This document shows, in pieces, positions 11,180 to 64,000 of a DNA stretch of 64,000 nt. Both the position numbers and the translations under genes were made by a program. The notes beneath the pieces were generated by a model. That model was given only the letters and a program-made list of their open reading frames with translations, was not told the DNA's origin and searched no databases. Source of the DNA: a virus; the IMG/VR virus record IMGVR_UViG_3300021963_000049, positions 52,689-116,688 of that record. One strand, written 5' to 3'. How positions within the stretch are numbered: the stretch's first letter is position 1; each line of letters opens with the position of its first letter.

Positions 11180-11231
11180 AATTTTAAGATGTAATTTACT
11201 AAATATTTGAGTTATACACAAAAGTGCATAG

Positions 11232-11303
11232 TAGTTCCACCTGGACTCGAACCAGGAATACAAGCTTAGAAGGCTAGTGTTATATCCCTTTAACTATAGA
11301 ACT
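11232..11303 (-). tRNA. tRNA-Arg (anticodon UCU, reads AGA)
   Basis: Minus strand: AGTTCTA-TA-GTTA AAGGGATA TAAC-A-CTAGC CTTCTAA GCTTG-TATT-CCTGG TTCGAGT CCAGG-TGGAACT-A; full cloverleaf, one mismatch in the anticodon stem, no encoded CCA. Confidence 0.92.
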
Positions 11304-15270: not shown

Positions 15271-15339
15271 ATTATAAATTTTAATTTATCATCAGTCTTG
15301 GGTTAGAAAGAAGAGGAAAGAAAAAAAGAAGAGTCATGA

Positions 15340-15591
15340 CTATTTAGTCATGATCTCTTCGGCACCACAGATGAAGATGGCTTCATAGCCTGCTTCATTT
15401 GTGTAAAGCTTGTAGCTTATTTTATAAAGGCCTTCAGACTTTATATAATTAGCAACAGCTTTCTTACTGACTTTGGGAAGCCATAGCTTATCAGAGTCAG
15501 TATTGACTTTCTTTATATTATAAAGGAAGTCATGGGATTTGTTAGACATGATGCTCACCAGAGCATCTTGGAATGGCAAAGACTTTTTCAT
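15340..15591 (-). CDS. early protein, hypothetical
   Basis: 83 aa ORF preceded by CTAACCCT. Confidence 0.7.
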   Translation of the reverse strand: MKKSLPFQDALVSIMSNKSHDFLYNIKKVNTDSDKLWLPKVSKKAVANYIKSEGLYKISYKLYTNEAGYEAIFICGAEEIMTK

Positions 15592-15629
15592 ATGATAAAT
15601 TTTTAATTTATCTCAAGTTTAGGGTTAGT

Positions 15630-15775
15630 CAGCATGCAAGAGCAAGCAAGCTTTTTTTGACAGAGGAAAAAAAAGTGCAGCGCAGTTCTGCATGAGCAAG
15701 GCCACCTGAGAAAGCAGGGGGGTACCACCTGCGGCTTGAGGGGTGGGGGTGGCCGCGCTGGGGGATCCTCACAAA
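15630..15775. other. GC/G-run-rich island at the strand switch; candidate packaging site or genome terminus
   Basis: G runs at 15717-22, 15740-43, 15745-49 and 15760-64 in an otherwise AT-rich genome. Confidence 0.5.
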
Positions 15776-15888
15776 CTCCAGTATAATATTTGGTTACTAC
15801 CGGTAAAGTATTATATTTGTATTTCATTCTCTACCAAAATAAAAAGTCCCCGGAACTACAGGCTGGGGGTTTTTTATTATATTATAGT

Positions 15889-16071
15889 ATGAGGATTTAT
15901 ATTATAAAGTCCGGGAAAGAGTATGAGGCTAGCATATCAGACCCAGATCCAGATACACAACAGGTTATGTATTTGGTAGAGAAAATTGTAAGCATGATGA
16001 ATCTGCCAAAGCAAGAGGTAGATGATTATATATTAGGATGGGCTGAAGAGATTAAACAAGTATTGAAATGA
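15889..16071 (+). CDS. hypothetical protein
   Basis: Likely start MRIYIIK at 15889, downstream of the terminator at 15847-15875. Confidence 0.6.
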   Translation: MRIYIIKSGKEYEASISDPDPDTQQVMYLVEKIVSMMNLPKQEVDDYILGWAEEIKQVLK

Positions 16072-16511
16072 AGAAAGTAGATATGGGTAAGTATGTACTC
16101 CTTGCTGGTAAGGATGCAACAGAGATATTTGATTATTATGATGTACCTGAGATGCATGGTCTCAACCGTGATGATGCTCAGGCAGAAGAAGTAGATAAGA
16201 CTTCTGGCAATGGAGTTTATATTTATGGTTGGACTAACTATGATCCAGCTGACAAGAAGCTTACAGCAAAGGCTCCTTACAAACCATTCTTGTTTATTAA
16301 CCTTGGTACTTTTAAAAAGTATTCTCTTACAGAAAAAGCTACAGCTGTTATGCATGAAACTATGCATATGAGTTTGTTACTTAATAACTGGAACATCAAG
16401 GATAAAGAAGAAGAGGCAATTGGTTTTGCTGAAGAACAAGCTAATAAGATTATTGATATGCTAGGATTTGGTACTAAAGAACAACCTAAGAAAGGGTTCT
16501 TTAAAAAATAA
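16068..16511 (+). CDS. zincin-like metallopeptidase
   Basis: AVMHETMH (HExxH) followed by EEEA third-ligand helix. Confidence 0.7.
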   Translation: MKKVDMGKYVLLAGKDATEIFDYYDVPEMHGLNRDDAQAEEVDKTSGNGVYIYGWTNYDPADKKLTAKAPYKPFLFINLGTFKKYSLTEKATAVMHETMHMSLLLNNWNIKDKEEEAIGFAEEQANKIIDMLGFGTKEQPKKGFFKK

Positions 16512-16514
16512 TAT

Positions 16515-17147
16515 ATGGCACATATAGAACACAATTTTTTTCCTCTTAAAGTATTTGTTAGGAATGAGTACATGTACCAGAATAAGAAAGGTCAAGGTGA
16601 ATTTACTCCAGGGGTAGTTATTTCAGTAAGATGCATGCCAGGGCAAGCTGCACTGTTTCAGGTACTCCTTGAGAATGGAGTACTTAGAGATAAGCTACCC
16701 TCACATGCGTTGCTTACTAAACCAGAGCTACCTAAACCGGATCTTCCTTTTCATCATCTGCAGATATGGAACTGTTTTTCTTATAATTTTACTGTGCTTC
16801 ATTTATCATATCTTTATGATACCCCAGTAGAAGTGTATATGAAAGATAGAAAGTTTTACCCTGGTAAATATCATGCTACTATTAATTGGGGATCTAATGA
16901 TCTTAACACAGATTTATCTTTGGCTGAGGATGCTCTAGAGCATAAGTCTCACCATATTATATTATTAGATAATGGGCAGATTGCTCTACAACCTAACAAT
17001 AGAATTAAATGGTCGGAGCCAAGTTTTGTTACTAAACCATTCCCTGAGAAACCAGATTATCTGGTTAATACAGATTATTATAACTGTGAAGGGTTTGATA
17101 AATGGCATACAGAAGATTCTGATAGAATGTTCTATGATACTGAATAA
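16515..17147 (+). CDS. conserved aquatic phage protein, unknown function
   Basis: QIWNCFSY...EHKSHHIILLDNGQIALQPNNRI. Confidence 0.75.
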   Translation: MAHIEHNFFPLKVFVRNEYMYQNKKGQGEFTPGVVISVRCMPGQAALFQVLLENGVLRDKLPSHALLTKPELPKPDLPFHHLQIWNCFSYNFTVLHLSYLYDTPVEVYMKDRKFYPGKYHATINWGSNDLNTDLSLAEDALEHKSHHIILLDNGQIALQPNNRIKWSEPSFVTKPFPEKPDYLVNTDYYNCEGFDKWHTEDSDRMFYDTE

Positions 17148-17149
17148 TA

Positions 17150-17335
17150 CCCCACCAGTATGTAAATACTGGGACCTCATGGTGATACTGTTGCCATGAT
17201 ATATGTACCAGACAGCATACCGTAAGATCTGCTCACTACACTGGTCTTTTTGGTTACTGGGAAAGCAGAGATCTGTATAACTAGTAACAACCCCAGATAA
17301 GTTTCTTTGGCCAAGAAGTACTATCTGGGTTTTTT
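17150..17335 (+). ncRNA. putative multi-hairpin ncRNA ending in a terminator
   Basis: Consecutive stems ccagta/tactgg, catgg/ccatg, accag/ctggt, gttactgg/ctagtaac, then cccagata/tatctggg plus a T tract. Confidence 0.55.
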
Positions 17336-17486
17336 ATTATATTTGCTTTGTAATGTTCAAGTATTTAAATTTAGAGTATTTAGATTTAGACATTAATTTT
17401 GACGAAGCTGAAAGCCCTAGATATTTTTCTAGGGTTTTTAGTTTAAACAAAAAAAGTTTTTATATTTGCTAACCAACAAATTGTGT

Positions 17487-17681
17487 ATGAGTGAGAAGAC
17501 AGTTCTGCATATTACCATAGATGAAGATGATAACATCAAAGTGGATGTAAATGTAAAGGAGTTTGATATACTAGCTCTTGTAGGTTTAATGGAGCAAATT
17601 AAACTTGATATATTTAAAGAGAATCTCCCATTGACAAAGGAGATAATTACTAAACTTCCAAATAATAACTATGATGCATAA
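17487..17681 (+). CDS. hypothetical protein
   Basis: Likely start MSEKTV at 17487, downstream of the TATATTTG promoter. Confidence 0.65.
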   Translation: MSEKTVLHITIDEDDNIKVDVNVKEFDILALVGLMEQIKLDIFKENLPLTKEIITKLPNNNYDA

Positions 17682-17925
17682 GTATGTAAAAAAGCCTGTG
17701 GTTATAGAGGCTATGCAATGGACTGGAGATAATACAAAAGAAGTTTTAGAATTTTGCCCGGACTGTTTTACTTATGAAAGAAATAATAAAGATGTATTTG
17801 TAGTATCTACATTAGAAGGTAATATGAATGCATCTCTAAATGATTATATCATCAAAGGTATCAAGTCTGAGTTCTATGCTTGTAAGCCAGATGTGTTTAA
17901 TCTCACATATGATAAAGTAGATTAA
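17671..17925 (+). CDS. conserved phage protein (KKPVVIEA...CKPDVF family)
   Basis: KYVKKPVVIEAMQW...TLEG...DYIIKG..EFYACKPDVF. Confidence 0.8.
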   Translation: MMHKYVKKPVVIEAMQWTGDNTKEVLEFCPDCFTYERNNKDVFVVSTLEGNMNASLNDYIIKGIKSEFYACKPDVFNLTYDKVD

Positions 17926-18037
17926 GGTGACAAAGCAAGAGTTGGACATATGGAGAGCTGTGACCAATTTCACTAAGGGCCAGGAAGGAGCCAACTTAAA
18001 AGCAAGAGAATTATATGAACAATTAAAAACCAACAAT

Positions 18038-18295
18038 ATGGAAAATAAAGATGCAGTAGTTATAGAAGAAAAAATCTTTTCATTTGGAGAGATTCTAGTA
18101 GGTATAGAATTTAATCCATCTAATGATGAGAAAGTATTTCAAGTAAAACAAAAGTTTGCAGAGATAGCTAATCTATTAAAGGATGAGTATAATAATAGTG
18201 CTAAGTCTCCTGTAAAGAGTTTGGTATTTGATCATGCAATAGGTGAAATCCTAAATGCTCAAATGTCAGTAGTTAAATTAATAACAATGAAGTAA
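18038..18295 (+). CDS. Acb2/Tad1-like cyclic-nucleotide sponge (putative anti-defence protein)
   Basis: FGEILVGIEFNPS...KQKFAEI...AIGEILNAQMSVVKLIT resembles the Acb2 helical hairpin (AxTxxxxAxMWAVK); likely start MENK at 18038. Confidence 0.6.
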   Translation: MENKDAVVIEEKIFSFGEILVGIEFNPSNDEKVFQVKQKFAEIANLLKDEYNNSAKSPVKSLVFDHAIGEILNAQMSVVKLITMK

Positions 18296-18570
18296 TGGTA
18301 GTAAGAGGAAAAAGGTTACTGGTTACAGTACCAGAATTAAAAAAGACATCTGTTGAGTTATCAGCTAAGGATGAAGAAATGAGAATGCAAGATGCAATCA
18401 AGCTGTGGACAAAACTAGAAGTATTTGCAGTAGGTAATGAAGTAGAGGGAATTAACCCGGGAGATAAAGTGTATATCCAAACATATGCATTAGAATCTGC
18501 AGAAAGAATTGAAGTAGATGGAGTAATAAAATTATTAATTCCAGACCAGGCTGTTGCAATTATATATTAG
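18295..18570 (+). CDS. groES: GroES-like co-chaperonin
   Basis: GKRLLV...EVFAVGNEVEGINPGDKVY...IEVDG..LLI. Confidence 0.75.
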   Translation: MVVRGKRLLVTVPELKKTSVELSAKDEEMRMQDAIKLWTKLEVFAVGNEVEGINPGDKVYIQTYALESAERIEVDGVIKLLIPDQAVAIIY

Positions 18571-18776
18571 TATATTTGTATCTGCTTTAAGTTCATAATA
18601 ATAGTTAGATGGTAAAAGTTCTCAGGTCATATTTGGTCTGAGAATTTTTTTTATATTTGTATATCCAAGCAAACAAGCAATAGTGATAGGTAAGAAGATC
18701 CTCAGATTTATTTCTGGGGATTTTGTTTTTTAAAATATTTTACTTATATTAAGTATGTAATATATTATTTGTAATC

Positions 18777-19457
18777 ATGGATATTCTAAATTTTTTAAAC
18801 TTAAGAACGCAGCGTCTAGTAAAGACAACTGCTAATAATCCTGAAACAGACTTAATAGTGCTAGGCGCAGATGTAGGTTTTCAGAAAAGAGATGATAGGT
18901 ACCAAACCTATGCTATGCCTTTGGCAGATGCAGTAAAGGCTGGATCTATTGCTAATAACACTTTTGAAACTACTACTTATGATATATTTCCATTTGTAAT
19001 AACTCCTTTTATAAATAAGTCAGACTATGCAATAATTGACACAAATACAGGAAGTACATTGCAAGCATGGACTATACAAGGTACTATTCTTTTAACTGGA
19101 TATAATAGTTATGCAGAGCCTCTTGGAACTATAGTAATAGAAGGAGGAGCATCATCAGATATTCAAAACTGGAAAACAAGTGGTGCAGTTTCATTTGATA
19201 GTTTCTTACCAGGTGTAACTGAGTCACAACCATTAGGATTAATAAACTTATTAGAGGACAGTGTGGGTGGTGCTGATTATGCACAGATTTCAATAGGTCA
19301 ATTCCCAACAGTAGTAGGTGCAAATCTTGAGATTGATGTAGTTATGTTTGTTGGATCTTGTCCAATAACAGCTGGTCCTGCTGGTACTTTTGAAGGTGAG
19401 GTTTCTTTTCAAATAGAATTTTTAGCAGATGCTAATTATAATGTTACACTTAACTAA
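18777..19457 (+). CDS. structural/decoration protein
   Basis: N-terminal ~55 aa paralogous to 19603..20172; beta-rich C-terminus. Confidence 0.7.
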   Translation: MDILNFLNLRTQRLVKTTANNPETDLIVLGADVGFQKRDDRYQTYAMPLADAVKAGSIANNTFETTTYDIFPFVITPFINKSDYAIIDTNTGSTLQAWTIQGTILLTGYNSYAEPLGTIVIEGGASSDIQNWKTSGAVSFDSFLPGVTESQPLGLINLLEDSVGGADYAQISIGQFPTVVGANLEIDVVMFVGSCPITAGPAGTFEGEVSFQIEFLADANYNVTLN

Positions 19458-19602: not shown

Positions 19603-20172
19603 ATGGATATTTTAAATTGGCTCTATATAAAAAAAGAGCAGTTAATAAGAACAAAAGCTAATAATCCTGACACGGACTTAGTAGCACTTGGTGCTAATGT
19701 AGGTTTTAATAAGAGAGATGATCAATATCAAACTTATGCAATGCCACTTAAAGATCTTGTTCAAGCTGGTAATGAAGGTAATACTAAACATTATGAGTTA
19801 GATATGACTGTAACAAATACAGTTACAGTAGATACTCCAAGAGGTATTATTGATATTACTGGAATGGGTACTGCACCTTTTTTAACTCCTGATCCAGCAT
19901 TTGCTTTTCAAACACCTTTTTATATTAATAATCCAGATCTAGATCTTACAGTAGCTAATAGAGATAATGTATATTTACAGTACTCTGTATATTATGCATT
20001 TGCTCCTACAGATGACAATGCTATTCCATATCTTATTTCTACAGGATTTATAATTCCAAATGGTGTAGGATTTAATCTATATAATGCTAATCCAGCAGCT
20101 GCACCTGTTGCACCAAACAACCAATGGACCGGAGCCTTGTATGTTTACTATGAACTTTATACAATTAACTAA
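19603..20172 (+). CDS. structural/decoration protein
   Basis: Shares MDILN...ANNP.TDL..LGA.VGF.KRDD.YQTYAMPL.D with 18777. Confidence 0.7.
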   Translation: MDILNWLYIKKEQLIRTKANNPDTDLVALGANVGFNKRDDQYQTYAMPLKDLVQAGNEGNTKHYELDMTVTNTVTVDTPRGIIDITGMGTAPFLTPDPAFAFQTPFYINNPDLDLTVANRDNVYLQYSVYYAFAPTDDNAIPYLISTGFIIPNGVGFNLYNANPAAAPVAPNNQWTGALYVYYELYTIN

Positions 20173-25819: not shown

Positions 25820-25930
25820 TACTTAAAGTAAAACTTTAACCCAGGCTATCTAACAGTCTGGGTTTTTTTGTTTTAAATATTTTTAGTTTAAACTTTTATT
25901 ATATATTTGTATAAATTAAAAAAATATAAA

Positions 25931-51081: not shown

Positions 51082-54000
51082 ATGGCAGAAAATAATTTAC
51101 AAGATACCAGTAAATTAATTACTAATACATTTGTTAAGGGTTTAAATAAAGATTCAGATCCTTCATATGTGTCTGAAGGTATGTGGACACATGCTGTAAA
51201 TGCTGTTAATAATAGTGTAGAAGGTGATGTAGGTTCATTATCTAATGAAGTTTCAAATTATTTATGTGCAACGGCAGGTGAGACTATGCCACTAAATATT
51301 GCAGAAAAATATATAATAGGAGCAATATACTTATACTCTGATAAATGGGCAATATTTACTGCAGGTCACAATGCATTAGGACAACCTGTTATGTCAGAGA
51401 TTGGACTTCTTGAAGAAGATAGATGTATATATAGACCAATAGTACAAGACATCTGTTTAAGATTTGATAAAAGATATCTTATATCCGGGGCTTCTAGAGA
51501 AAAAGAAGATTGCACCTGGCAAGTATATTGGGCTGATGGAAAAAATCCAGATAGATATTTAAATATAGGAGATCCTAAAACTTGGCCACCTAGTGATTTT
51601 TCATGGTTAGGTGGTGGTGCTTCTTCTATGAACTATTATTCAAATGGTACACAGCAAATGCTTTGGCCAGGAGTTGCATGGAATCAGGATTGTGAACTTG
51701 TAGATAATTGTAACATATGTACAGATCTTAATTCACTTGACTGTGACCAAACAAGATTAGCAAGATTAATGGAAACACCTTGTCTTAATTTAAGACTTGG
51801 TAATCAAGGTGGAACACTAGCAAATGGAACTTATTTTGCAGTTATTACATATACTATAAAAGGTCAAAAAGTAACTGATTATTTCTCACAAAGTAATAAT
51901 CAATTTATATATACTGTTAATGATCTAGAAGGATCTTTAAACTTAGAAGTTTCTGCGGACTCTGAAAACTTTGATGAGTTTGAGTTAGTAATTGTACAAA
52001 ATATAAATCAAGGTACAGTTGCAAAAAGAATGGGTGTTTACTCTACTAAGACTACTTCAATTTCTATAGATCAAATAGATCCGACAAACATTACTGTACC
52101 AATAGAACAATTACCAATTCAAACTCCTGTTTATGAGAAGTCAGATCAAATAACAGAAGTTAATGAATATTTACTTAGAGTTGGTCCTACATCTAAATTT
52201 GATTTTAATTATCAACCTCTTGCTAATTTGATTAGATCAAGATGGGCATCTGTTGAGTATCCAGCTGATTATTACATAAAAGGTGGTAATAAAACAAACT
52301 ATCTTAGAGATGAAGTTTATTGCTTTTTTATAAGATGGGTGTATGATACTGGAGACAAGTCTTCATCATATCATATCCCAGGTAGAGCACCAAGAGATTT
52401 TACTATTCCTTTAACCGGAGCTTTAGTAAGTGAAACACAATCTTTAGTAAATCCAAATACACTAACTCCAGGAGAATCAGTATTTCAAGTATATAATACT
52501 GCAAATACATTATCAAGTCCACTGATTGGTTCTAACACAGATGATGGTGGAACAGTCATAGCAACTGGAGAAATGGGCTATTGGGAATCATCAGAATCTT
52601 ATCCAGATAATAGACCTGATATATGGAACTCATCAAATTACTGCTGGACTAATGTTCCAGTAGATCCAGTAACTAGTCTTCCTATACCTAATACAAATTA
52701 TGATTTGTGTGGTCAAAAAATTAGACACCATAAGTTTCCAGAAAACTATATAAATAATAATAGTACAACTAATGTTATTCACTTTAGAAGAAATGTAAAC
52801 TCAAGTACTACAGGGCCTCAAAACTTTATTAGAATACTTGGAGTATATTTTGAGAATATAATATTACCAAAGGATAATGATGGTGAAGATATTCCGGGGA
52901 TTGTAGGCTTTGAAATATTAAGAGGTTCTAGAGAAGGTAATAAAACTATTATTGCCAAAGGAATGGTCAATAACTTAAGAAGTTATGAAATAAGAGGTGG
53001 TAGCAAAAAAGGAAGAATTGGTTTATATCCAAACTATCCATTTAATACTATCTATCCACTTAATAACCAAAGCACAAACCCAGGTCTTCATAACTTTAGT
53101 TATAATGATCCATATATAAAAAATGAAAAGACTAATGGTGATTATGTAAATCAAATAGTTCCAAAAGATGTATTTACATTTCACTCACCAGATACAATGT
53201 TTAGAACTCCTTTCTTATCTACAAGTGAGTTTAAAATATATGGTCACTTAAAAGGATATGCTGAACAACAGTTTTTGTTTCCAGACAAGCATCCAAAGTT
53301 TAAGCTTCTATCAAATCTTGCAATACTTCCTATGATTATCACTGGGGTTGCCCAAGGTATTATTTCAATGCTTGGTAAGAAAACAGTAAACCAACCTGAT
53401 ATATTAGGAGCTAGTGGTGTTTCAGATGCAGCAGGTGTTGCAGCAGCTACTTATACAACTGCAGCAACAGCATTAGGACTTCCAGTAACTGGACCATTAG
53501 CACTTTATAATACATTTGTAAATAACTATTATTCATCTGGTACAGCATTATTAGATGTAGCAGCAGAATTTATACCTTTTGTACCAACAGCAGCAGTTAC
53601 TGCAGAAAATACACTTATTACAGCATTAAATGCAAGTGCTATTGCTCAAGTAAATGCTCCAGTAATTAGAACTGGCGCAATAGAATTACCAGACTTTGCA
53701 TATTTACCCGGAGCCGTTAAAACATTAGGAGCTATAAATCAGTTAGCATTTTATTTTTCAGAAGGTGCAGAGATAGCTTTAAGAATATTATATGCAGTAG
53801 TTACATATAAGCAATATGCATTACAGAGTATGTCATATGGTTTCTATGATAATATGAATAGTAATCCGGTTTCAGAAATATTTAGATTTAAAATCCAAGA
53901 TAGTTTTTATATAAGAGATAATATTCAAGAAGTTAATAGGTATCAAACAAGCTCCGGTGTCTGGACTTCTTATATGATAAACAACTTAAAGAGATCAGAT

Positions 54001-56562
54001 GCCGTTGTAGTAAGAACAGTAAATGGAGCAGATGTAACAGATGGTCCTAGCTTCATTGGTGTTCCAACTAATGCTTCAGGTTTTCCAACAGGTAATCAAT
54101 TATCTGGACTTGATAAATCTCTTGTAACATTAGGGTCACTAAATCAAAGTTACTATGGAGCTAACTCTTCTGCTTCAATACTAGCTCCCGGTGGTTTTCC
54201 TAATTTTCAAAATCCAGATACATCTTTTGGTTTACCAATTGGAAGTCATTATGGGGCCCTCAAAGGAAGAGTTGTAAACCAATATGGTCAGCTTGAATCA
54301 GTAAGGCAAATAGTAATTACTCCATGTGAGCAAAAACTAAATACTTATTTGCTCAGCAATATTGGTCCATTTAATTGTGGCGGATTAGCATACACACAAA
54401 GAAAAGTTATATCAACACCAGTATTCTTTAATGGAGATACTTACATAAATAGATATACTGAAAAGAATAACATGATGTTCTTCTATGACTGGTTATATGA
54501 TCAGCCAGATGGCTTTGAGTATAATTACTATCTAAGGAACATGATTTCATCAACAAGGTTTGTTGTTAACAGCCAGTTGTATGAACCAGCAAATCTTTCA
54601 GGTTTAATAGATATAGCAAGTGTTGTTGCACCATCAACAGGTAGTGGAGCATATCCAGGAGAGTTTTATAATCTTGATTTCTATATTGATCCAACAAGAT
54701 ATTATAATTATGGGATTGATCAAAATATGGGTCCCCTTGGGCCATTCCCATTTAACTTAATCTTTGATGGTTATAGAGGTACTTTTAGTGTAAAGCAAGC
54801 CTACTTCTATTTAGCTAATTCATCTATAAGAGATTTCTTTGTTGAGTCAGATGTACTAATAGACTTTAGACAACAAGGGTTACTAGATGGGGAGAAGCAC
54901 TATGATCCATATAGATTTACTAACTATCAGGTTATGTTCAGCATGAATCCTGATGTGATGGGTAGAAATAGTATCTATGCATATGACTATTCTTTAAGTG
55001 TTTCTAAATTATATAACCAATACTTTTCTGCTGGTAACTTACAGTCTAGATACTATGATCCAAATGTAGCAGAACTATGCTATACTTATTATCCGGATAG
55101 AGTAATATACTCACTACCTCAGCAAATTGAATCTATAAAAGATAGCTGGTTTGTATACTTAGTTAACAACTATAAAGAGTTTAAGTCTCAGATTAGTGGA
55201 GTTAAATCTATAAACAAAAGTGGTATTATAATTACTTTTAAGAATGATAGTCCATTAATGTATCAAGGTGTAGATACACTTGAAACAGATCTTGGTACAA
55301 AAATTACAATTGGAGATGGTGGTTTATTTAGCCAGCCTCAACAATCTATATCCAATGCTGATAAGTCCTATGAGTATGGATCATCTCAAAACAGATTGTC
55401 TGTTATTTCAACTCCTGTGGGAATATTCTACATGTCACAAAACCAAGGTAAGATATTTAACTATGGTCAAGGACTTACTGAAATTTCTCAAGCTGGATTA
55501 AAATGGTGGTTTACTTTGTATTTACCATATAAGTTAACAGAAGATTTTCCAGAATATCCATGGCAAGATAATCCAGTAGTAGGTATTGGTTGTCAGTCAG
55601 TATATGATAATACCAGCAGTTTACTTTATTTCTGTAAAAAAGATTATAAGCTTAAAGCTCAGTATAAAGGTAAAGTAACTTATGTACCTATTACACCAAA
55701 AGGACAAGGAGATTACTTTACATTAAGTTCAAATCCAGGCTCAAGATATAAATTAGGTGATCCAGATATATTTGATAATGCATCTTGGACAGTAAGTTAT
55801 GATCCTAAGAATCAGTTCTTTATATCATTCCATGACTGGCATCCAGATTTACTAATACCAACTAAAGATACTTTCTTAAGTACAAAAAGAAATGGTATGT
55901 GGAAGCATAACTTTTTATGTAATGACTTCTGCCAGTTCTATGGTCAAAGATATCCATTTGAGGTAGAGATACCAATTATTACTGGACAGACTGTAATGAC
56001 TACAAGATCTATAGAATACATACTTGAGTGTTATAGAAGAAGCAGTACAAGCTGTATAGATCAACACAATGTAGCAGATTATAATTTTGATCAAGCTATT
56101 GTATATAACGCAGAGCAAGTATCCGGGTACTTAAACTTAAACCTATTCCCAAAGAACAATATAACATTAAGCTTACAGTATCCTAAGTTAAATGCTAACT
56201 TGTCCTCATATGATATATTATTTTCTAAAGAGGAAAACAAATATAGGTTTAACCAGTTCTGGGATATAACTAGAGATAGAGCTGAGTTTCCTATTGGGTC
56301 AGACTATCCTCCTACTGGACCTGTAATACCAGGTAGTACTATTCTTCAAGGTAACTATGATTCTCAAAATACATGGGTAACAGGTCCTGATGGTTATAAT
56401 AGAATTCTTAATCCAAACAACATGAACTATAATAAGGAATTGTTGCAGAGAAAAAAGTTTAGGCATTACTTAAACTACTTAAACTTAAGAAGAAATGTAT
56501 CTACAGATGTAAACATGATCCTTAAAATAGTAAATAGTAAAAATCAATATTCCCCTAGATAA
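51082..56562 (+). CDS. tail stabilisation/muzzle protein
   Basis: 1826 aa; F.KGLNKD N-terminus, YLRDEVY.F.IRW, IRHHKFP, F.SFHDW.P. Confidence 0.8.
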   Translation: MAENNLQDTSKLITNTFVKGLNKDSDPSYVSEGMWTHAVNAVNNSVEGDVGSLSNEVSNYLCATAGETMPLNIAEKYIIGAIYLYSDKWAIFTAGHNALGQPVMSEIGLLEEDRCIYRPIVQDICLRFDKRYLISGASREKEDCTWQVYWADGKNPDRYLNIGDPKTWPPSDFSWLGGGASSMNYYSNGTQQMLWPGVAWNQDCELVDNCNICTDLNSLDCDQTRLARLMETPCLNLRLGNQGGTLANGTYFAVITYTIKGQKVTDYFSQSNNQFIYTVNDLEGSLNLEVSADSENFDEFELVIVQNINQGTVAKRMGVYSTKTTSISIDQIDPTNITVPIEQLPIQTPVYEKSDQITEVNEYLLRVGPTSKFDFNYQPLANLIRSRWASVEYPADYYIKGGNKTNYLRDEVYCFFIRWVYDTGDKSSSYHIPGRAPRDFTIPLTGALVSETQSLVNPNTLTPGESVFQVYNTANTLSSPLIGSNTDDGGTVIATGEMGYWESSESYPDNRPDIWNSSNYCWTNVPVDPVTSLPIPNTNYDLCGQKIRHHKFPENYINNNSTTNVIHFRRNVNSSTTGPQNFIRILGVYFENIILPKDNDGEDIPGIVGFEILRGSREGNKTIIAKGMVNNLRSYEIRGGSKKGRIGLYPNYPFNTIYPLNNQSTNPGLHNFSYNDPYIKNEKTNGDYVNQIVPKDVFTFHSPDTMFRTPFLSTSEFKIYGHLKGYAEQQFLFPDKHPKFKLLSNLAILPMIITGVAQGIISMLGKKTVNQPDILGASGVSDAAGVAAATYTTAATALGLPVTGPLALYNTFVNNYYSSGTALLDVAAEFIPFVPTAAVTAENTLITALNASAIAQVNAPVIRTGAIELPDFAYLPGAVKTLGAINQLAFYFSEGAEIALRILYAVVTYKQYALQSMSYGFYDNMNSNPVSEIFRFKIQDSFYIRDNIQEVNRYQTSSGVWTSYMINNLKRSDAVVVRTVNGADVTDGPSFIGVPTNASGFPTGNQLSGLDKSLVTLGSLNQSYYGANSSASILAPGGFPNFQNPDTSFGLPIGSHYGALKGRVVNQYGQLESVRQIVITPCEQKLNTYLLSNIGPFNCGGLAYTQRKVISTPVFFNGDTYINRYTEKNNMMFFYDWLYDQPDGFEYNYYLRNMISSTRFVVNSQLYEPANLSGLIDIASVVAPSTGSGAYPGEFYNLDFYIDPTRYYNYGIDQNMGPLGPFPFNLIFDGYRGTFSVKQAYFYLANSSIRDFFVESDVLIDFRQQGLLDGEKHYDPYRFTNYQVMFSMNPDVMGRNSIYAYDYSLSVSKLYNQYFSAGNLQSRYYDPNVAELCYTYYPDRVIYSLPQQIESIKDSWFVYLVNNYKEFKSQISGVKSINKSGIIITFKNDSPLMYQGVDTLETDLGTKITIGDGGLFSQPQQSISNADKSYEYGSSQNRLSVISTPVGIFYMSQNQGKIFNYGQGLTEISQAGLKWWFTLYLPYKLTEDFPEYPWQDNPVVGIGCQSVYDNTSSLLYFCKKDYKLKAQYKGKVTYVPITPKGQGDYFTLSSNPGSRYKLGDPDIFDNASWTVSYDPKNQFFISFHDWHPDLLIPTKDTFLSTKRNGMWKHNFLCNDFCQFYGQRYPFEVEIPIITGQTVMTTRSIEYILECYRRSSTSCIDQHNVADYNFDQAIVYNAEQVSGYLNLNLFPKNNITLSLQYPKLNANLSSYDILFSKEENKYRFNQFWDITRDRAEFPIGSDYPPTGPVIPGSTILQGNYDSQNTWVTGPDGYNRILNPNNMNYNKELLQRKKFRHYLNYLNLRRNVSTDVNMILKIVNSKNQYSPR

Positions 56563-59500
56563 TGAGTGTTAAAGTTTCTAAATCTAAAATTCCAGGTGCT
56601 GGTAAAGGTTTATTTACTACTAAGCCTTTTGCAAAAGGTGAGTTAATAGGTCTAGCACACAAAGATGGTCAACCGGTTGGTAACATTGGAAAAATGCATA
56701 ATCACTCTGAAGAGCCAACTGCATATAGTGTAAAGCTTGGAAATAAAAGGTTTGTATATGCTAATAGAGATCTTGATAAAGGAGAAGAGATAACTACTGA
56801 TTACAGAATGCAGCCGGAGCTTGAGCAACCAGATGATTTTAAAAAAGGTGGTTCAGTTCCTAAACTACCAAAAAAGAAAAATGCTAAAGCTTGGTCAAGA
56901 AGTATAGAAGCAACAAATAGGTTGTTTACAAAGAATCCATTATTTGAACAACCTAAGTCTAGGAAGAATAAAGTATATGATCCAAAGGCTAAATACTATC
57001 AAGATGGTGGAGAACTTCCAGATGACTATCAAGAGTTCTTAGATTACTCAGCAACTGCTCCAGAAAATAGACAACCTGGACCAGATTATTTTTATGGTAA
57101 TCCTGATGATTATGATCACTATGGTATGTGGGATGCATTAGGTAAGCCTAAGAATTTTGAAGAGGCATTGCAAATGAATCCAGACTGGACACCAGATGAA
57201 TATGATGGTATGTATCATGGTTTCAGTGTTAATCCTAACACAGGAGTATTTCTTAAAGCTGGTAAACCAGGTGGTATAAAAGAAGGGGATACTACATGGA
57301 TGGAAATAGCTGGACATTATCTAAGTCCAAGAGCTCAAGTTGACACACCAGTATTTGATATTGATTTACAAAGATTTAAATATATACCAAATAAACAAAA
57401 TGGTGGTAGCAAGCTAGGACCTATATTACTAAACTCTGGTAGATTTGCTGCTAAGAAATATCCATTTGGTAAATTCTCAGGAGTATTTAAAAAACAAGAA
57501 GGAGGAGAACCAGAATATAACAACCTACCACCTACATATCTAACTGCATTAAGAAACTTTATATATCCTAATGTAGTAGCTGATCCTAGAAGAACAGGAC
57601 ATAATGCATTAACAAATACTATTTCTTATGACCCAGAGAGTCCAATAGAAAATGTAAACAATGACTGGTGGATGGAGCATGAGTTATTTCATGAGCTCCA
57701 GAATCAAGCCGGGGGATTAAGTACCTCTGGTATAGTTGGTGAAAGACCAAATCAGTATGTTGCATCTGATCAAGCTATACAATCTTATTATGATAGAAGA
57801 GATGCTGATGTGAATAGAGTAGTAGATCAGATGATTGCAGAAAATCCAGAGCTTCAATTTATACCAAGAGAAAGGTTAATTGAAGGCAGCCCTGCTTTTG
57901 TTGGAGCTGAGTCTCTTCAATATGGAGATCCTACTACACTAGAGGGTGAGGCAAGACAGTATGAGCAATATATAGAAGCTGGTAATCCATCTATCTTTCC
58001 ACAAGGTCCAGATAATTATGTAGAACTAGAACTTACTCCAGAAGAAATTGATCAGTATGCAAAAGGTGGATACATAGTAGAAGATATCTCTGTACCTTCA
58101 TTAACTAGATTTCAGAAGGGAGGTAAGAAAAAGAAAAAGCTAAATAGGGATAACTATAAGTACTATAAACATCCTTCTGCTCCAGGTAGAACATTTGCTA
58201 AAGACAGCAAAGGTAATTGGAAAGAAGTAGTTAATAATGAACTTAGAGAAATTGGTTATGATCCAAATTATTATTTAACACCACATGTCAAAGAATTAAC
58301 TGAAGAAGAGAAAAAGATAGCTTTATCTCCTGGAATGAGTCAGTATAATCCAAAAGATTTAAAAGAAGTACAAATAAAAAGACAGCCTACGCAAATGGAG
58401 CTGTATCTGAAAGAATATGAAGATATGAATGGATATGATTCATATATGAGTAATAGAGCAGAAAGATATTTTAAAAATAGTGCTTATCCAGGACTTGATA
58501 GGGCATTTGGGTATAGAGATTTAGAAAGTCTTTCACAAAAAATTAAAGATAAATGGACTGCAGAATACAACCGTAATAAAAATACTTATGCTACTGAAAG
58601 ATATTTAAGAGATTATTTAGGTGTAGATCCAGATAAAAGAGGTCAATGGGTTGATAAAGTAAGTGATACATCTTCATATGAAGGAAAAAAGATATTGAGA
58701 ACAATAGCTAATTCAGAATATGGATATAAACTAAAGCCAAATCTTTTTGCAAGATTTGTTGGTGGTTTAACAGAAACATTAAACTGGATTAATCCTATTA
58801 ATGCTGCTCAAAATGCTTATGAGTATGTTACAGGTACAGATTATTATAATCCAACTGAGATAGGTAATGTACTACCAGATTATCTATCTGAAAAAGAATT
58901 TGAAGAAATTACTCCATTAGATGTTTTTGCTCCAGCAGAATATATACCTAGAGTAATTTTAAATTCAACTATAGAGGCATTAGATCCAAATACTGATGTT
59001 AGTTTAAATACTATTAGTGGTTATAGAAATCCTAATATTAGAGATGAAGATGAAGCAGTTGCAAATATAGTAAGTGGAGTTGTACAAGCTCCTGCATTAG
59101 TAGCATCTTTGCCTAGTATGGTTAAATCAGGAGCCAATGTTGCAAAAAAACTTTTATCATCAACTGATGATGCGGGTAAATTAATTGCACAAACAGAAAA
59201 TGTAGCTGAAGCAGCTTCAGATGTAAGAGCATTAAATAAAGTAGATGAATTACCGGGATCTGTTAATTCTAATGCTGGAGTTAGTAATATAAAAGTACAA
59301 TCTAATGCTACACCAACAAATGGTAGTCCTGGTGTATTAAATTCTGTAAGCAAAACAGTTTCAGAAAAACCAGTAATAACAACAAATAATACAACAACCT
59401 TTACTAATTCAGAAGATTATTTAAATGATCTAATGACTAAATATCCAATTTCTGAAGAAGAAGCAGTTAAGTTTATTCAAGAATATAGCAAAACTGTAGG

Positions 59501-60902
59501 AGATCCATATCAAGCTTATAATATGTTAGGTCATGGATTTGTTGGATCAACAAAAACAGCAGGTTCAGATATTCAAAAATTAGCAACTGCATTAAAGTAT
59601 AATGCTAAAGCTCCGGTAGGAGAATATTTATATCATGGTACTTCCTCAAGTAATTTAGATAATATTTTAAAAAATGGTTTAGATAACTCACTAGGAGCAC
59701 CAACTAATACAGGCGGTACAATGCCTGATGTATTAGGTGCTGGACAAACAACTGCAACTGGTGATTTAAACTATGCAAAAAATTTCTCAGATATATCATC
59801 ACAGTCATCTGGTGGAAACCCTGTATTAATAAGATTTAAAAATACTGAAGGATTAGATGTAGGATATATAGGTGCAAATAAAGCTGTTCCCGCAAAAGAA
59901 ATAGAATACAGTTTAGATGGAGGTAATACTTGGGTTAAGTCAGATGCATTAGATAATACTACATCAACTATTAAATCAGATGGTACAGCTGTAGTAGATA
60001 ATAAAACTCCTACATTTAAATCAGAAATAGATTGGGCTAAATGGAACCCTGACACTCCTAAGTACCCAGAGCTTATTAATGAATATAATGCAATAGAAGA
60101 GTCTACCAAGAAAGCTGGTACATGGATGAAAAATCCAGACGGTTCTACATTTCAAGGAACTCCAGAACAGTTTGTACAACAGCAAAGCAGTTGGTTTAAA
60201 AAAGCTTTTGGTGAATCAAAACTCATAGGCCCTGAAGGTAGTCCTATGTTTTTGTATCATGGTTCTGCTAAAAAGTTTGACACATTTGATCCTTCTAAAT
60301 TTCAATTAGGAGATGCAGGATATTCTGGAGCTGGTATATATACAACTCCTTCAAAAACAACAGCTAATAGTTATGCCACATCATCTGCCAAATTTCATTC
60401 TGGTGATATAGAACCTACAGTGTATCAACTTTATGGACAAGGTAATAGACCAATTAAATCATCTGATTTAATAAAAGAAAATCAAGGCAGAGATTTATTT
60501 AATTTTTACAGAGATAGAAACTGGAAAGGAGAACTATCTCCTTATGAAAGCTTAAGAGAATATGATGTAGCAGTATCTGATCAATTACCTAATGTTCAAA
60601 ACATTAGACCTTTGTATGATGCAAGAGAAATAGTTTTTCCAACAAACACACAACTTAAATCAGCAGTAGGTAATGTAGGATTTTTTGACATGACAAATCC
60701 TAATATTTATAAAAGTGTATTGCCATATATAATTGGTACTGGTGCTGCAGGAACACTATTAAATTCTAATGAGCAAACTGTTTCACCAAGTTATCAAGAA
60801 GAGGTACCAGGATTTAAAAGAGGAGGTTCAATAGTTTTAGAACTTACAGATAAAGAAATAGAGGAATATAAAAGAAAAGGTTACATAGTAGAAGAATACT
60901 AA
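56562..60902 (+). CDS. polyvalent cargo protein: SET domain + HExxH metallopeptidase + two ADP-ribosyltransferase-like domains
   Basis: SKIPGAGKGLF...NHS.EP...ANRDL.KGEEITTDY; MEHELFH; YLYHGTSS.NL..ILKNGL; FLYHGS.KKFDTFD...G..G.GIYTTP....A..YA. Confidence 0.8.
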   Translation: MSVKVSKSKIPGAGKGLFTTKPFAKGELIGLAHKDGQPVGNIGKMHNHSEEPTAYSVKLGNKRFVYANRDLDKGEEITTDYRMQPELEQPDDFKKGGSVPKLPKKKNAKAWSRSIEATNRLFTKNPLFEQPKSRKNKVYDPKAKYYQDGGELPDDYQEFLDYSATAPENRQPGPDYFYGNPDDYDHYGMWDALGKPKNFEEALQMNPDWTPDEYDGMYHGFSVNPNTGVFLKAGKPGGIKEGDTTWMEIAGHYLSPRAQVDTPVFDIDLQRFKYIPNKQNGGSKLGPILLNSGRFAAKKYPFGKFSGVFKKQEGGEPEYNNLPPTYLTALRNFIYPNVVADPRRTGHNALTNTISYDPESPIENVNNDWWMEHELFHELQNQAGGLSTSGIVGERPNQYVASDQAIQSYYDRRDADVNRVVDQMIAENPELQFIPRERLIEGSPAFVGAESLQYGDPTTLEGEARQYEQYIEAGNPSIFPQGPDNYVELELTPEEIDQYAKGGYIVEDISVPSLTRFQKGGKKKKKLNRDNYKYYKHPSAPGRTFAKDSKGNWKEVVNNELREIGYDPNYYLTPHVKELTEEEKKIALSPGMSQYNPKDLKEVQIKRQPTQMELYLKEYEDMNGYDSYMSNRAERYFKNSAYPGLDRAFGYRDLESLSQKIKDKWTAEYNRNKNTYATERYLRDYLGVDPDKRGQWVDKVSDTSSYEGKKILRTIANSEYGYKLKPNLFARFVGGLTETLNWINPINAAQNAYEYVTGTDYYNPTEIGNVLPDYLSEKEFEEITPLDVFAPAEYIPRVILNSTIEALDPNTDVSLNTISGYRNPNIRDEDEAVANIVSGVVQAPALVASLPSMVKSGANVAKKLLSSTDDAGKLIAQTENVAEAASDVRALNKVDELPGSVNSNAGVSNIKVQSNATPTNGSPGVLNSVSKTVSEKPVITTNNTTTFTNSEDYLNDLMTKYPISEEEAVKFIQEYSKTVGDPYQAYNMLGHGFVGSTKTAGSDIQKLATALKYNAKAPVGEYLYHGTSSSNLDNILKNGLDNSLGAPTNTGGTMPDVLGAGQTTATGDLNYAKNFSDISSQSSGGNPVLIRFKNTEGLDVGYIGANKAVPAKEIEYSLDGGNTWVKSDALDNTTSTIKSDGTAVVDNKTPTFKSEIDWAKWNPDTPKYPELINEYNAIEESTKKAGTWMKNPDGSTFQGTPEQFVQQQSSWFKKAFGESKLIGPEGSPMFLYHGSAKKFDTFDPSKFQLGDAGYSGAGIYTTPSKTTANSYATSSAKFHSGDIEPTVYQLYGQGNRPIKSSDLIKENQGRDLFNFYRDRNWKGELSPYESLREYDVAVSDQLPNVQNIRPLYDAREIVFPTNTQLKSAVGNVGFFDMTNPNIYKSVLPYIIGTGAAGTLLNSNEQTVSPSYQEEVPGFKRGGSIVLELTDKEIEEYKRKGYIVEEY

Positions 60903-60960
60903 ACTTTATAAGTTTACCCATTATTCTAAAATTTATTATATTTAATATATAACCAGTTGT

Positions 60961-63900: not shown

Positions 63901-64000
63901 AGAACAACTTCAGGTGGTTTATTTAGAACATTAGCTCCTTGGAATCCAATTGCAGGATATGCTGGATCTTGGGCAAAACAAATGACATTGCCATATATGG
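60961..64000 (+). CDS. large low-complexity cargo/ejection protein (runs off the window)
   Basis: Starts MDKKKVRIYKAPDG; frame checked at several points to the end; FQDGG, MKKGG, KQRGG, MQRGG, RQYGG, FIYGG, AQNGG motifs. Confidence 0.8.
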   Translation, partial: MDKKKVRIYKAPDGKGKFINKTAKFLQKAQIGAEVQISEEEQLNQYFSYAYERLKRNIKPEVVYSDLIQSGVSQQVAYNVLTETIKQMVNRGELDPDYMEEEEQPQGEQQPQATGEEQQMASDEEAQRAQQDQEQQELMQSNSGYYGEEEEYAGDDSYLDQSFQDGGYTQSLMNQYAMQNQEAQQSPSMEELVAKTPGIQEGLVFPGIEEYLPNYSPMDWQSFDALQSSSQEMKKGGATKKNFVKNVMDLVKKQRGGEEEAQSKTHGKGKRMDTLTNDVEKRKTSFVNTLRDDATKAASEEMYDLMMQSGNPKLMQIAMSPDASQQEAPEQMMQRGGVPGIPTPREYRKAYRQMKRMVPRGIDISRANIGTGYYGRNQMPGFTRPYTQQDMMGLLGSTAGSMGLPTGSMMAPSVYVQDTDWRGRPKQYIIDYTGQMVSNMKPTGDVVREVAKEVNSQADPSEPVNAKDSEILKNNPKETSVATQADAVVLPLVKKDLTPQDVLALDPLKQARLNDDIVETIGKKIRRGDEAVKSSVEPTSLSQAEISYTQPYYEWSAPFTRSEYANAAKKYEGFINALRHKENFGKYDEFYGIYDNDTYKAYKDANIKEGTEEYEKFLLDKGIITPKELEIYKAGEAYLTKDPETGYEYSVNPAYQSGFIDKGAAASLLSPASLDKYNQAQQATQNYFNQAIIYDMFSPGEFELLPNLPIRPVEQFPIAERPEIIKRQYGGASSEMGGFVSQENPLYKFIYGGDDVMMPYDDQDLPMAQNGGEEDGLPAWASPQQKMDYYQKLQGDLIESSNYDYETYENTDDGTGTVVLQGPAGDQDYYKSLLDKGWDNLTQKELEELMEAGDLKSYTKDGKKYEYVQSPNAGLFEGIPDIDLRNKLMGYNDLYYYNLHQNEGNYAPGYKYTSGDITSKDVELYNKIMQNQPVEDNSLGDQSVTDETEVSEDSKEVSEDAKKESGVATRKAQLNYVPRYRTTSGGLFRTLAPWNPIAGYAGSWAKQMTLPYM

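Follow-up and report, generated by a model that had tools for sequence, protein, structure and literature searches.

A candidate non-coding-RNA island with an AbiF-antitoxin-like RNA in a crAss-like phage of Bacteroidota

The stretch of DNA analysed here, hereafter the window, comprises 64,000 nucleotides (positions 52,689 to 116,688) of the IMG/VR virus record IMGVR_UViG_3300021963_000049, and is the right-hand part of one contig, which has a length of 116,688 bp and a guanine-plus-cytosine (GC) content of 33 %. At 15.8 to 18.8 kb of the window, at the head of a rightward gene block, four short units (U1 to U4) lie among small genes, each made of a promoter-like box, a few tens of nucleotides and a terminator hairpin, and a further intergenic sequence of about 190 nt adjoins U2. 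The question raised by this locus is whether these sequences are genes for RNAs and, if so, on what such RNAs would act. An earlier note, made from the sequence alone, had taken the four units for small RNAs (sRNAs), driven by the host sigma factor, that block translation initiation of host or phage mRNAs, possibly those of defence genes. On balance, we favour the explanation that the locus is a non-coding-RNA island in a variable region. The more important result is an RNA within it that resembles the antitoxin RNA of the abortive-infection toxin AbiF, and which gives the idea of RNA directed against defence a specific and testable form.

The rightward block contains genes for the large terminase (phrog_6681, E 7.4e-55), the portal protein (phrog_6547, E 2.9e-95) and the major head protein. 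Among isolated or named phages, the best relatives of the terminase are crAss-like phages, Flavobacterium psychrophilum phages, Bacteroides phages and Azobacteroides phage ProJPt-Bp1, at about 25 to 27 % identity, and the virus is therefore judged from its sequence to be a distant freshwater crAss-like phage of roughly 117 kb, whose host is a member of the Bacteroidota. Its genome is estimated to be 99 % complete. No close DNA relatives were found by megablast among isolated or deposited phages, and blastn gave only short, chance-like matches. The crAss-like phages are among the most abundant phages known; to our knowledge, almost nothing has been established on how they handle host defences or on the RNA regulators that they encode.

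Relation of the structured RNA to the AbiF antitoxin

The RNA of about 190 nt lies directly behind p210 (Table 1; ORFs, or open reading frames, are named p followed by the length of the product in amino acids). p210 has 449 relatives in IMG/VR, the best 80 of which were taken as loci. Whole or partial copies of the RNA were present in 13 of these first 80 loci, and further copies were obtained from a pattern scan of IMG/VR, among the matches listed. An alignment of nine sequences supports a structure of 52 base pairs, 25 of them with compensatory changes. Pairing is maintained in 95.9 % of the alignment cells, compared with 83.6 % in shuffles (a value as high was reached in 0 of 500), the number of pairs changed on both sides is 25 compared with 14.6 in shuffles, and slid controls gave 1 to 5 compensated pairs. 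In six relatives, a TAnnTTTG box belonging to the RNA itself is situated 4 nt before its 5' end.

AbiF is described as a HEPN RNase that acts as an abortive-infection toxin and is a proposed ancestor of Cas13; the ncRNA (non-coding RNA) encoded upstream of abiF is described as a type III antitoxin that binds AbiF and blocks the HEPN active site (PMC13064643; PMC12737573; bioRxiv 10.1101/2025.04.15.648962). The phage RNA was compared with bacterial sequences in both directions, using a covariance model built from phage sequences only (R2) and another built from 16 bacterial core sequences only (R3). R2 gave matches in 4 of 151 sampled Bacteroidota genomes, and the two best were directly upstream of, and on the same strand as, Abi_2 (PF07751) genes. 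When 30 Bacteroidota Abi_2 loci were searched, R2 gave 23 matches in 20 loci, all on the strand of the gene; 21 of these end 23 to 145 nt before the Pfam match and the other two are second copies further upstream. The bacterial partner is a true AbiF, as shown by its Pfam Abi_2 match (E 4.1e-54) and by the match of the L389 protein to PDB 8vz6_A (E 9.5e-62, residues 22-314), the entry reported as the solved AbiF-ncRNA complex (PMC12737573).

In the opposite direction, R3 gave 12 matches at E ≤ 0.002 in the structured-RNA regions of the phages, ten at the aligned core and two at a second core just upstream in L113 and L105. The score was 45.3 bits for L072 and 24 to 45 bits for L081, L049, L069, L038, L065, L056, L027 and L147, and the match was weak for L061 (E 0.085). 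Phage and bacterial RNAs have in common AGUAC, a loop reading CCGUAAGA(A/U)C, a bulge on the 3' side with AG at its end, and GUCUUUU, on stems that are compensatorily changed. With high confidence, the structured RNA is regarded as homologous to the AbiF ncRNA. The anti-defence role that the earlier note had proposed for RNAs of this stretch gains real support from this RNA, which was itself absent from that description.

No Abi_2 gene was found in the phage or in four relatives (0 of 5). Because a folded, covarying homologue of an antitoxin is kept without a toxin, a decoy antitoxin is the most plausible function, and the structured RNA is probably an anti-AbiF decoy, or antitoxin mimic, that would bind the AbiF toxin of the host during infection and keep it inhibited. 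In 2012, Blower et al. reportedly described pseudo-ToxI, with which Pectobacterium phage phiTE imitates the ToxI RNA antitoxin; neutralisation of a type III abortive-infection toxin by a phage RNA is also the mechanism proposed here, although the toxin family differs (ToxN). If it acts against AbiF, the phage RNA would be the AbiF counterpart of pseudo-ToxI and a natural trans-acting inhibitor of a nuclease of the AbiF/Cas13 lineage. A hairpin at the cos site of lactococcal phage sk1 is reported to inhibit AbiF and not to resemble the AbiF ncRNA (PMC13064643), in contrast to the RNA described here, which is very probably its homologue. The pairing of phage RNA and AbiF might also help to predict hosts, as these should carry matching AbiF systems.

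Several observations weigh against a decoy related to the AbiF antitoxin. The copy in the window is weakly matched by the bacterial model (R3, 17.5 bits, E 0.15, 17200-17258) and strongly by the phage model (R2, 187.7 bits), which indicates clear homology to the sister phage copies, so that its bacterial link rests on these sister copies. Compared with the ncRNA antitoxin AbiFr of the Prevotellaceae AbiF (PDB 8VZ6), to which its core hairpin is homologous by covariance models in both directions, the phage RNA is an orphan, has extra 5' hairpins and a 3' domain, and lacks a match to RF03085. At E ≤ 10, this Rfam abiF motif matched neither window 17140-17345 nor the bacterial sequence L412 2100-2360. 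Abi_2 genes were detected in 37 of the 401 Bacteroidota genomes sampled, and the host, placed only within this phylum, need not carry AbiF. The RNA has no box of its own in the window and must be read through from the upstream operon. Together with p210 it is absent from the closest relative, L197, and is therefore dispensable; it was not found in three of the four whole relatives searched.

Several further features of these RNAs were observed. A second, more bacteria-like core stands in tandem just upstream of the first in L113 (9464-9524), L105 (135-203) and L073 (4240-4285), and two bacterial abiF loci have a tandem upstream RNA (L404, 695-869 and 1259-1373; L405, 697-879 and 1259-1373). 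RCd22 of C. difficile is likewise described with two abiF motifs. The RNA upstream of the Bacteroidota abiF genes (L393-L422, L389, L390) is detected by no Rfam 15 model, RF03085 included, and appears to be an unrecorded variant family. Rfam gave no match to the phage structured RNA either, and the latter defines an RNA family, present in phages and Bacteroidota, that Rfam 15 does not detect. In L049 (1008-1115), L050, L027 (2861-2968) and L081, p210 and the AbiF-like RNA are separated by a further conserved stretch, about 120 nt long and equipped with a terminator; it is outside the window and possibly represents one more non-coding RNA. A transfer RNA (tRNA) gene immediately precedes the AbiF-like RNA in L027 (2526-2599), and one follows it in L105 (about 560-640), an adjacency that suggests co-transcription and processing with tRNAs. 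The pair formed by p210 and the structured RNA (16515-17337) behaves as a mobile cassette; it is missing in L197, and p210 is 89-93 % identical in 80 phages that have diverged far more in their other proteins.

Build, conservation and targets of the four units

All four units were found where the earlier note had placed them, and its account of their build was confirmed. The box TATATTTG corresponds to TAnnTTTG, the sigma-A -7 consensus of Bacteroidota; 25 to 67 nt without a conserved ORF separate box and terminator in each unit; no ATG-started ORF is common to unit homologues; and U3 and U4 are arranged head to tail, the T tract of U3 running straight into the U4 box. In Flavobacterium psychrophilum the sigma-A -7 box TAnnTTTG is reported at -12 to -5 (PMC9723704), and from this position the unit transcripts are expected to start about 5 nt past the G of the box. 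The window contains 17 copies of TATATTTG, compared with 8.95 ± 2.70 in shuffled sequences, where 17 is attained in 2 of 100 cases, and five of the ten copies on the + strand fall within 15812-18659 (2.9 kb), all of them intergenic. Terminator-like sites are also in excess between 12 and 22 kb (11 found, 4.1 ± 1.9 expected), and all four predicted unit RNAs fold better than shuffled sequences.

When the whole genome (116,688 bp) was scanned for TAnnTTTG followed within 15 to 110 nt by a hairpin and a T tract, seven places were found, consisting of the four units, two sites inside genes and one gene end with a terminator; outside genes, the unit layout is thus found only in this stretch. The hairpin of U3 is the only terminator behind the operon 17487-18570. 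U2 and U3 each lie between the last gene of an operon and the sole terminator after it, and so are embedded in 3' untranslated regions. A minus-strand ORF at 15603-15827 (74 amino acids), whose start codon is the CAT of U1, was rejected as a gene, the product being Cys/Pro-rich junk from a GC-rich element. The units are very probably real transcription units. Each would stand alone, with a host sigma-A type box, no ORF and an intrinsic terminator, and would yield an RNA of about 50 to 95 nt.

The same architecture was found in relatives, where the earlier note had advised looking for it: the 80 p210 loci contain 102 box-to-terminator matches, which fall into several sequence families. p210 is 89-93 % identical in amino acid sequence across these loci, and the neighbouring proteins are 30-88 % identical (most below 65 %) and vary in order, which marks the region as mosaic. 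One family, A, is placed directly after the p210 stop codon in 17 of the 80 related loci, making 18 copies with that of the window, 12 of them distinct, and U2 is a member with a longer body (covariance model R1, 45.8 bits). Of five relatives whose whole genomes were searched, R1 matched three, which are complete or nearly so, and the matches are confined to this region.

Ten closer relatives were recovered from metagenome contigs with p91 as query. U2, U3 and a U4-like region are present in L197 (82-87 % nucleotide identity), U3 and a U4-like region in L204, and one U4-like unit directly behind the p91 homologue in L198 and L200. Synonymous positions are 0.63-0.80 identical between the window and L197, and the identities of the unit parts are given in Table 1. 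The conserved 17-mer of U3 is identical at 17/17 positions in L197 (p91 third codon positions, 62/92) and at 16/17 in L204 (43/92), for which simple arithmetic gives a neutral chance of about 1e-3 and 5e-5, respectively, and the U3 hairpin is maintained by compensatory changes in both relatives. Among the relatives of U2 and U3, conservation is confined to the box, an unpaired 5' segment of 17 to 20 nt with the common core GUUCA, and the terminator. For both U2 and U3, the 5' segment is conserved clearly more than neutral change would predict.

Within 28 nt of the box, GTTCAT is present in 12 of the 55 distinct units and in 0 of 73 gene-proximal TATATTTG promoters, and TTCAT[AT] in 20 of 55 and 1 of 73; the copies are not phylogenetically independent, and Fisher p values for these counts overstate the case. 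In most copies of families A and E, the start of the motif coincides with the predicted +1; in U2, U3 and others it is 5-12 nt past the box. The spacing between box and motif ranges from 4 to 12 nt, which points to an element acting at the RNA level rather than one in contact with the polymerase. An antisense ORF starting at the complement of GTTCATA was considered and rejected as a general explanation, since family E units do not adjoin p210.

FopS and GibS sRNAs of Bacteroides thetaiotaomicron are described as short, multicopy RNAs with a sigma-A promoter, a single-stranded 5' seed and a Rho-independent terminator, which repress translation initiation; one FopS member is derived from a 3' untranslated region, and a FopS sequence has been reported in a phage too (PMC11697453). 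This anatomy is matched by U2 and U3 only. RNAs of the FopS/GibS type also pair with translation start regions and are bound by RbpB. The units differ in that they are encoded by a lytic crAss-like phage, have different seeds and match no Rfam family model, FopS included; with Rfam 15, the window at the gathering threshold and 15300-18900 at E ≤ 1 gave only tRNA and chance-level matches, and no family for the units. The crAss-like flavobacterium phage phi14:2 is reported to produce abundant non-coding RNAs from intergenic regions without ORFs (bioRxiv 10.1101/2020.03.07.982082); these are described, in contrast to the units, as long and as located at the g004-g006 junctions, and a blastn search of the phage collection gave no sequence match. 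Given the build common to FopS and GibS and the precedent of phi14:2, U2 and U3 are rated as probable sRNA genes, and we lean towards regarding them as functional RNAs. They would be seed-plus-terminator sRNAs, with their own promoters within the untranslated 3' part of the operon before them, acting in trans, probably on host RNAs. U1 and U4 have the same predicted build, and their bodies, as compared here, carry no sign of selection. The hairpin of U4 may mainly end early or middle transcription ahead of the structural genes.

A number of results count against functional sRNAs. The -33 elements upstream of U2, U3 and U4 are poor. Family A is absent from 63 of the 80 related loci; in L026 there is no family-A unit, and in L009 and L011 the first box directly drives the next gene. 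The bodies of family A have a mean identity of 0.64, compared with 0.66 at third codon positions of p210, and in close pairs 0.79-0.85 compared with 0.90-0.94, so that they change like synonymous sites or faster. The U4 box is TATATTTA in the two closest relatives, L197 and L204. No homologue of U1 was found in the relatives, where only its type of hairpin recurs. The exact U3 17-mer gave 32 matches in IMG/VR, all in unrelated sequence and none in a unit context, a single one having a TAnnTTTG box nearby by chance.

The searches for targets were also unfavourable. The exact complement of the U3 segment gave at least 120 matches in bacterial genomes, in unrelated places of many phyla; among those listed, 22 are at plausible gene starts, of unrelated proteins, and four matches in Flavobacterium lie within one conserved coding region, in a different frame. 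In 81 Flavobacterium genomes, the U3 complement (15-mer, at most one mismatch) occurred at 73 places, compared with 131 for the reversed control, and is thus rarer. The near-complements of the two conserved 5' segments, counted ungapped in the whole phage genome, numbered 94 and 91 (shuffle means 101 and 108) and are not in excess. No complementarity between the unit seeds and the conserved single-stranded parts of the structured RNA was seen by eye. As the host is placed only within the Bacteroidota, these blanks leave a host target possible.

Of the earlier interpretation, the sigma-A boxes, the lack of ORFs and the terminators are supported, but the proposed antisense pairing to start codons is not. 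By RNAduplex, the units pair with 126 phage start regions no better than shuffled units do, and the sole strong match is the pseudo-ORF antisense to U1 itself (15603-15827). CAT beside U-rich sequence is indeed present, but it is to be expected by chance in AT-rich DNA, and only the CAT of U3 lies in a conserved segment. The supposed anti-ATG stretches of U1 and U2 are not conserved, and the CAT of U2 (17389-17391) falls in the unit body, where the closest relative shows deletion or divergence (13/43). The 12 nt of U1 that are complementary to 15972-15983 are real, but not significant genome-wide, since 118 of 300 shuffled U1 sequences also have a 12-nt complement; closeness (150 nt away) is the sole unusual point of this match. 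Masking of start codons by the unit RNAs is accordingly rated as quite unlikely.

A wider proposal, which is tentative, is that freshwater crAss-like phages carry a counter-defence island made of RNA only, in which the orphan copy of the AbiF antitoxin is joined by sRNAs of the U2/U3 families that would silence further host transcripts. If this is true, a widespread group of uncultured phages fights host immunity chiefly with non-coding RNAs. Bacteroidota translate without a Shine-Dalgarno lead, and their sRNA biology is young; for this phylum, the units provide a concrete, conserved set of candidate phage sRNAs.

Alternative explanations

An alternative to RNA genes, rated as unlikely, is that the units are regulatory or recombination cassettes, namely terminator/promoter modules around the small genes of a hyperplastic region. 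PeSLs, the promoter-early stem-loop cassettes of T4-type phages, are described as such modules (PMC2839356; PMC4122927), and a genome rich in similar copies and the formation of mini-circles also belong to their description. The modules would insulate transcription and serve as cross-over points, a short transcript would be a by-product of an empty slot or of abutting cassettes, and the conserved 5' segments would be cis elements, for example an operator or a stability signal of an mRNA 3' end. As with PeSLs, composites of a host-type promoter and a stem-loop terminator are concentrated in intergenic positions of this region (17413-17468, 17292-17345 and 18620-18659), and indels between relatives end at the modules: p210 and the structured RNA (~16512-17330) are missing in L197 with the right break at TTTTATTATATTTG, and the loss of the unit in L026 and the joining of the first box to the next gene in L009 and L011 fit the same pattern. 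The gene content around p210 varies widely, while boxes, terminators and linker are common to relatives. The composite 17413-17468 is the best conserved part of family A (mean identity 0.86 for terminators and 0.93 for the linker and next box, against 0.64 for bodies), and its linker recurs at 25881-25909, these being the only two occurrences in the window. The U4 box decays in relatives, and the terminator of U4 and the hairpin type of U1 follow ordinary genes in other phages; in the case of U4, the gene has no preceding promoter, and a conserved T-rich TATATTA-type motif and a gene with a product that starts in MDILNF come next. However, recombination of two cassettes leaves one cassette, not a promoter, 25-67 nt and a terminator, and a short conserved transcribed segment with its own terminator behind the promoter, here a Bacteroidota TAnnTTTG, is undescribed for PeSLs. 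For the 17-nt segment of U3 and the 5' segment of U2, conservation greatly exceeds the neutral level, GTTCAT is specific to units and stands at varying distances from the box, which suits an operator or a site of polymerase contact poorly, and family A keeps the same place in 17 related loci at about 40 % synonymous divergence. Cassettes account for the movement and loss of the units and may account fully for U1 and U4, but not for the selected 5' segments of U2 and U3. Regulated leaders, in which transcription would stop at the hairpin and read through it only with a phage factor that the conserved 5' RNA recruits, are very unlikely. The order of promoter, conserved RNA segment and terminator is the layout of such leaders (lambda nut/N, Q with 6S RNA and HK022 put), U3 and U4 are just ahead of the structural gene block, and U1 is ahead of the first three rightward ORFs (15889-17147). 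Against this, a separate promoter-like motif stands between terminator and start codon for each of the downstream gene blocks, the operon at 17487 having TATATTTG at 17461, and a homologue of an antiterminator was not found among ten neighbouring proteins. Least probable, to a degree that it can be set aside, is that the units encode micro-peptides: short ATG frames exist in single copies, such as 17353-17472 (39 amino acids) and a 3-codon frame in L038 and L049, but no frame is common to homologues, the L006 unit lacks an ATG altogether, indel lengths are not divisible by three, and the frames run through the terminator hairpins.

For the structured RNA, the alternative is that it has no part in counter-defence, being either the toxin-less remnant of a phage-borne AbiF module or a stable RNA of another role that contains an ancestral hairpin. 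The large extra domains, the tRNA gene adjoining the RNA in L027 and L105 (processing with tRNAs being an example of such a role) and the absence of the RNA from L197 and from three of four whole relatives are in keeping with this, and AbiF systems are reported to occur on prophages (bioRxiv 10.1101/2025.04.15.648962). Decay of a remnant is contradicted by the 25 compensated pairs and the invariant loop and bulge nucleotides, found across phages whose neighbouring proteins are 40-60 % identical, by the promoter and terminator that the RNA has kept for itself in six relatives, by the two tandem cores of L113, L105 and L073, and by the lack of an Abi_2 gene in all five phage genomes. This alternative is considered improbable, and the decoy antitoxin is the preferred reading of the structured RNA.

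Features and surroundings of the island

The coordinates of the features are collected in Table 1. Up to 15591 the ORFs are directed leftward, and from 15889 onwards rightward.

Table 1 Predicted features of the island and neighbouring genes in the window, with nucleotide identity to the closest relative, L197
Feature	Position	Strand	Identity to L197	Remarks
U1 promoter box TATATTTG	15812-15819	+		Sigma-A -7 type; TTG 19 nt upstream
U1 predicted RNA, ~50 nt	15824-15874	+		Terminator hairpin 15848-15868, T6; fold z -2.64
p60	15889-16071			Rightward ORF
p147	16068-16511			Rightward ORF
p210	16515-17147			Rightward ORF; match to phrog_3704
Structured non-coding RNA, ~190 nt	17148-17337	+		From p210 stop to U2 box; terminator 17292-17329; very probable orphan homologue of Bacteroidota abiF-upstream ncRNA
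AbiF-ncRNA-like core hairpin	17200-17258	+		AGUAC ... CCGUAAGAUC loop ... UAC bulge ... GGUCUUUU
U2 promoter box TATATTTG	17338-17345	+	8/8	8/8 likewise in each of the 12 distinct copies of family A
U2 conserved single-stranded 5' segment	17347-17364	+	Nearly identical; 15/20 in fixed window owing to one gap	Contains GTTCA; predicted unpaired
U2 predicted RNA, ~92 nt	17350-17441	+		5' segment, variable body with lineage-specific hairpin, terminator 17415-17434, T5; z -6.37
U2 body			13/43, 24-nt indel	
U2 terminator			28/29	
Conserved linker and next TATATTTG box	17442-17468	+	27/27	Drives operon 17487-18570; with U2 terminator, a terminator/promoter cassette
p64	17487-17681			Rightward ORF, first of four-ORF operon 17487-18570
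p84	17671-17925			Rightward ORF, operon 17487-18570
p122	17927-18295			Rightward ORF, operon 17487-18570
p91	18295-18570			Rightward ORF, last of operon 17487-18570
U3 promoter box TATATTTG	18571-18578	+	8/8	Directly behind p91 stop codon
U3 conserved 17-nt 5' segment	18583-18599	+		Predicted unpaired
U3 predicted RNA, ~69 nt	18583-18651	+		Terminator 18620-18643, T8; z -4.32
U3 body			7/15	
U3 terminator			20/35, hairpin retained	
U4 promoter box TATATTTG	18652-18659	+	7/8 (G to A)	TATATTTA in L197, L204; intact in L198, L200
U4 predicted RNA, ~67 nt	18664-18731	+		Conserved TAGGTAAGAAG 18687-18697, terminator 18699-18720, T-rich tail; z -4.33
U4 body			10/28	
U4 TAGGTAAG and terminator			36/45	
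p226	18777-19457			Rightward ORF
p189	19603-20172			Rightward ORF
TATATTA-type promoter-like motif	15878, 18744, 23872, 33576, 42017, 46360, 48773			

The proteins neighbouring the structured RNA gave no match in Pfam. The family of p210, phrog_3704, carries the annotation ferredoxin in a cyanophage record. No relatives of p226 were found in IMG/VR. p226 and p189 match the same regions of relatives by tblastn and look like paralogues, and their N-termini resemble the MDILNF protein encoded behind the U4-type terminator in relatives.

The divergent intergenic region holds a GC-rich element (15650-15790) of 56-59 % GC with at least four G runs, which is about 69 % identical beside the homologue of a leftward 83-amino-acid ORF (15340-15591) in L007, L010 and L028; an origin, a G-quadruplex and a regulatory site are candidate roles. 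Near 15.2 kb the cumulative GC skew reaches its lowest value, and this and the strand switch are the only support for the idea that the units prime an origin. In the leftward block, a tRNA-Arg gene (anticodon TCT) is located at 11231-11303 on the minus strand. The rightward block ends in very large ORFs (1826, 1446 and >1013 amino acids) at 51082-64000, such as crAss-like phages typically have for their virion-packaged RNA polymerase and cargo proteins.

A second promoter-like motif, consisting of a T-rich tract and (G)TATATTA(T/A)A, stands 10-40 nt before p60 and the starts of the structural block. It is found ahead of 15889, 23911, 33606, 42056, 46384 and 48790 and, in degenerate form, ahead of 18777; in relatives, the copy in front of the gene for the MDILNF product is conserved. 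The motif is probably a middle or late promoter class.

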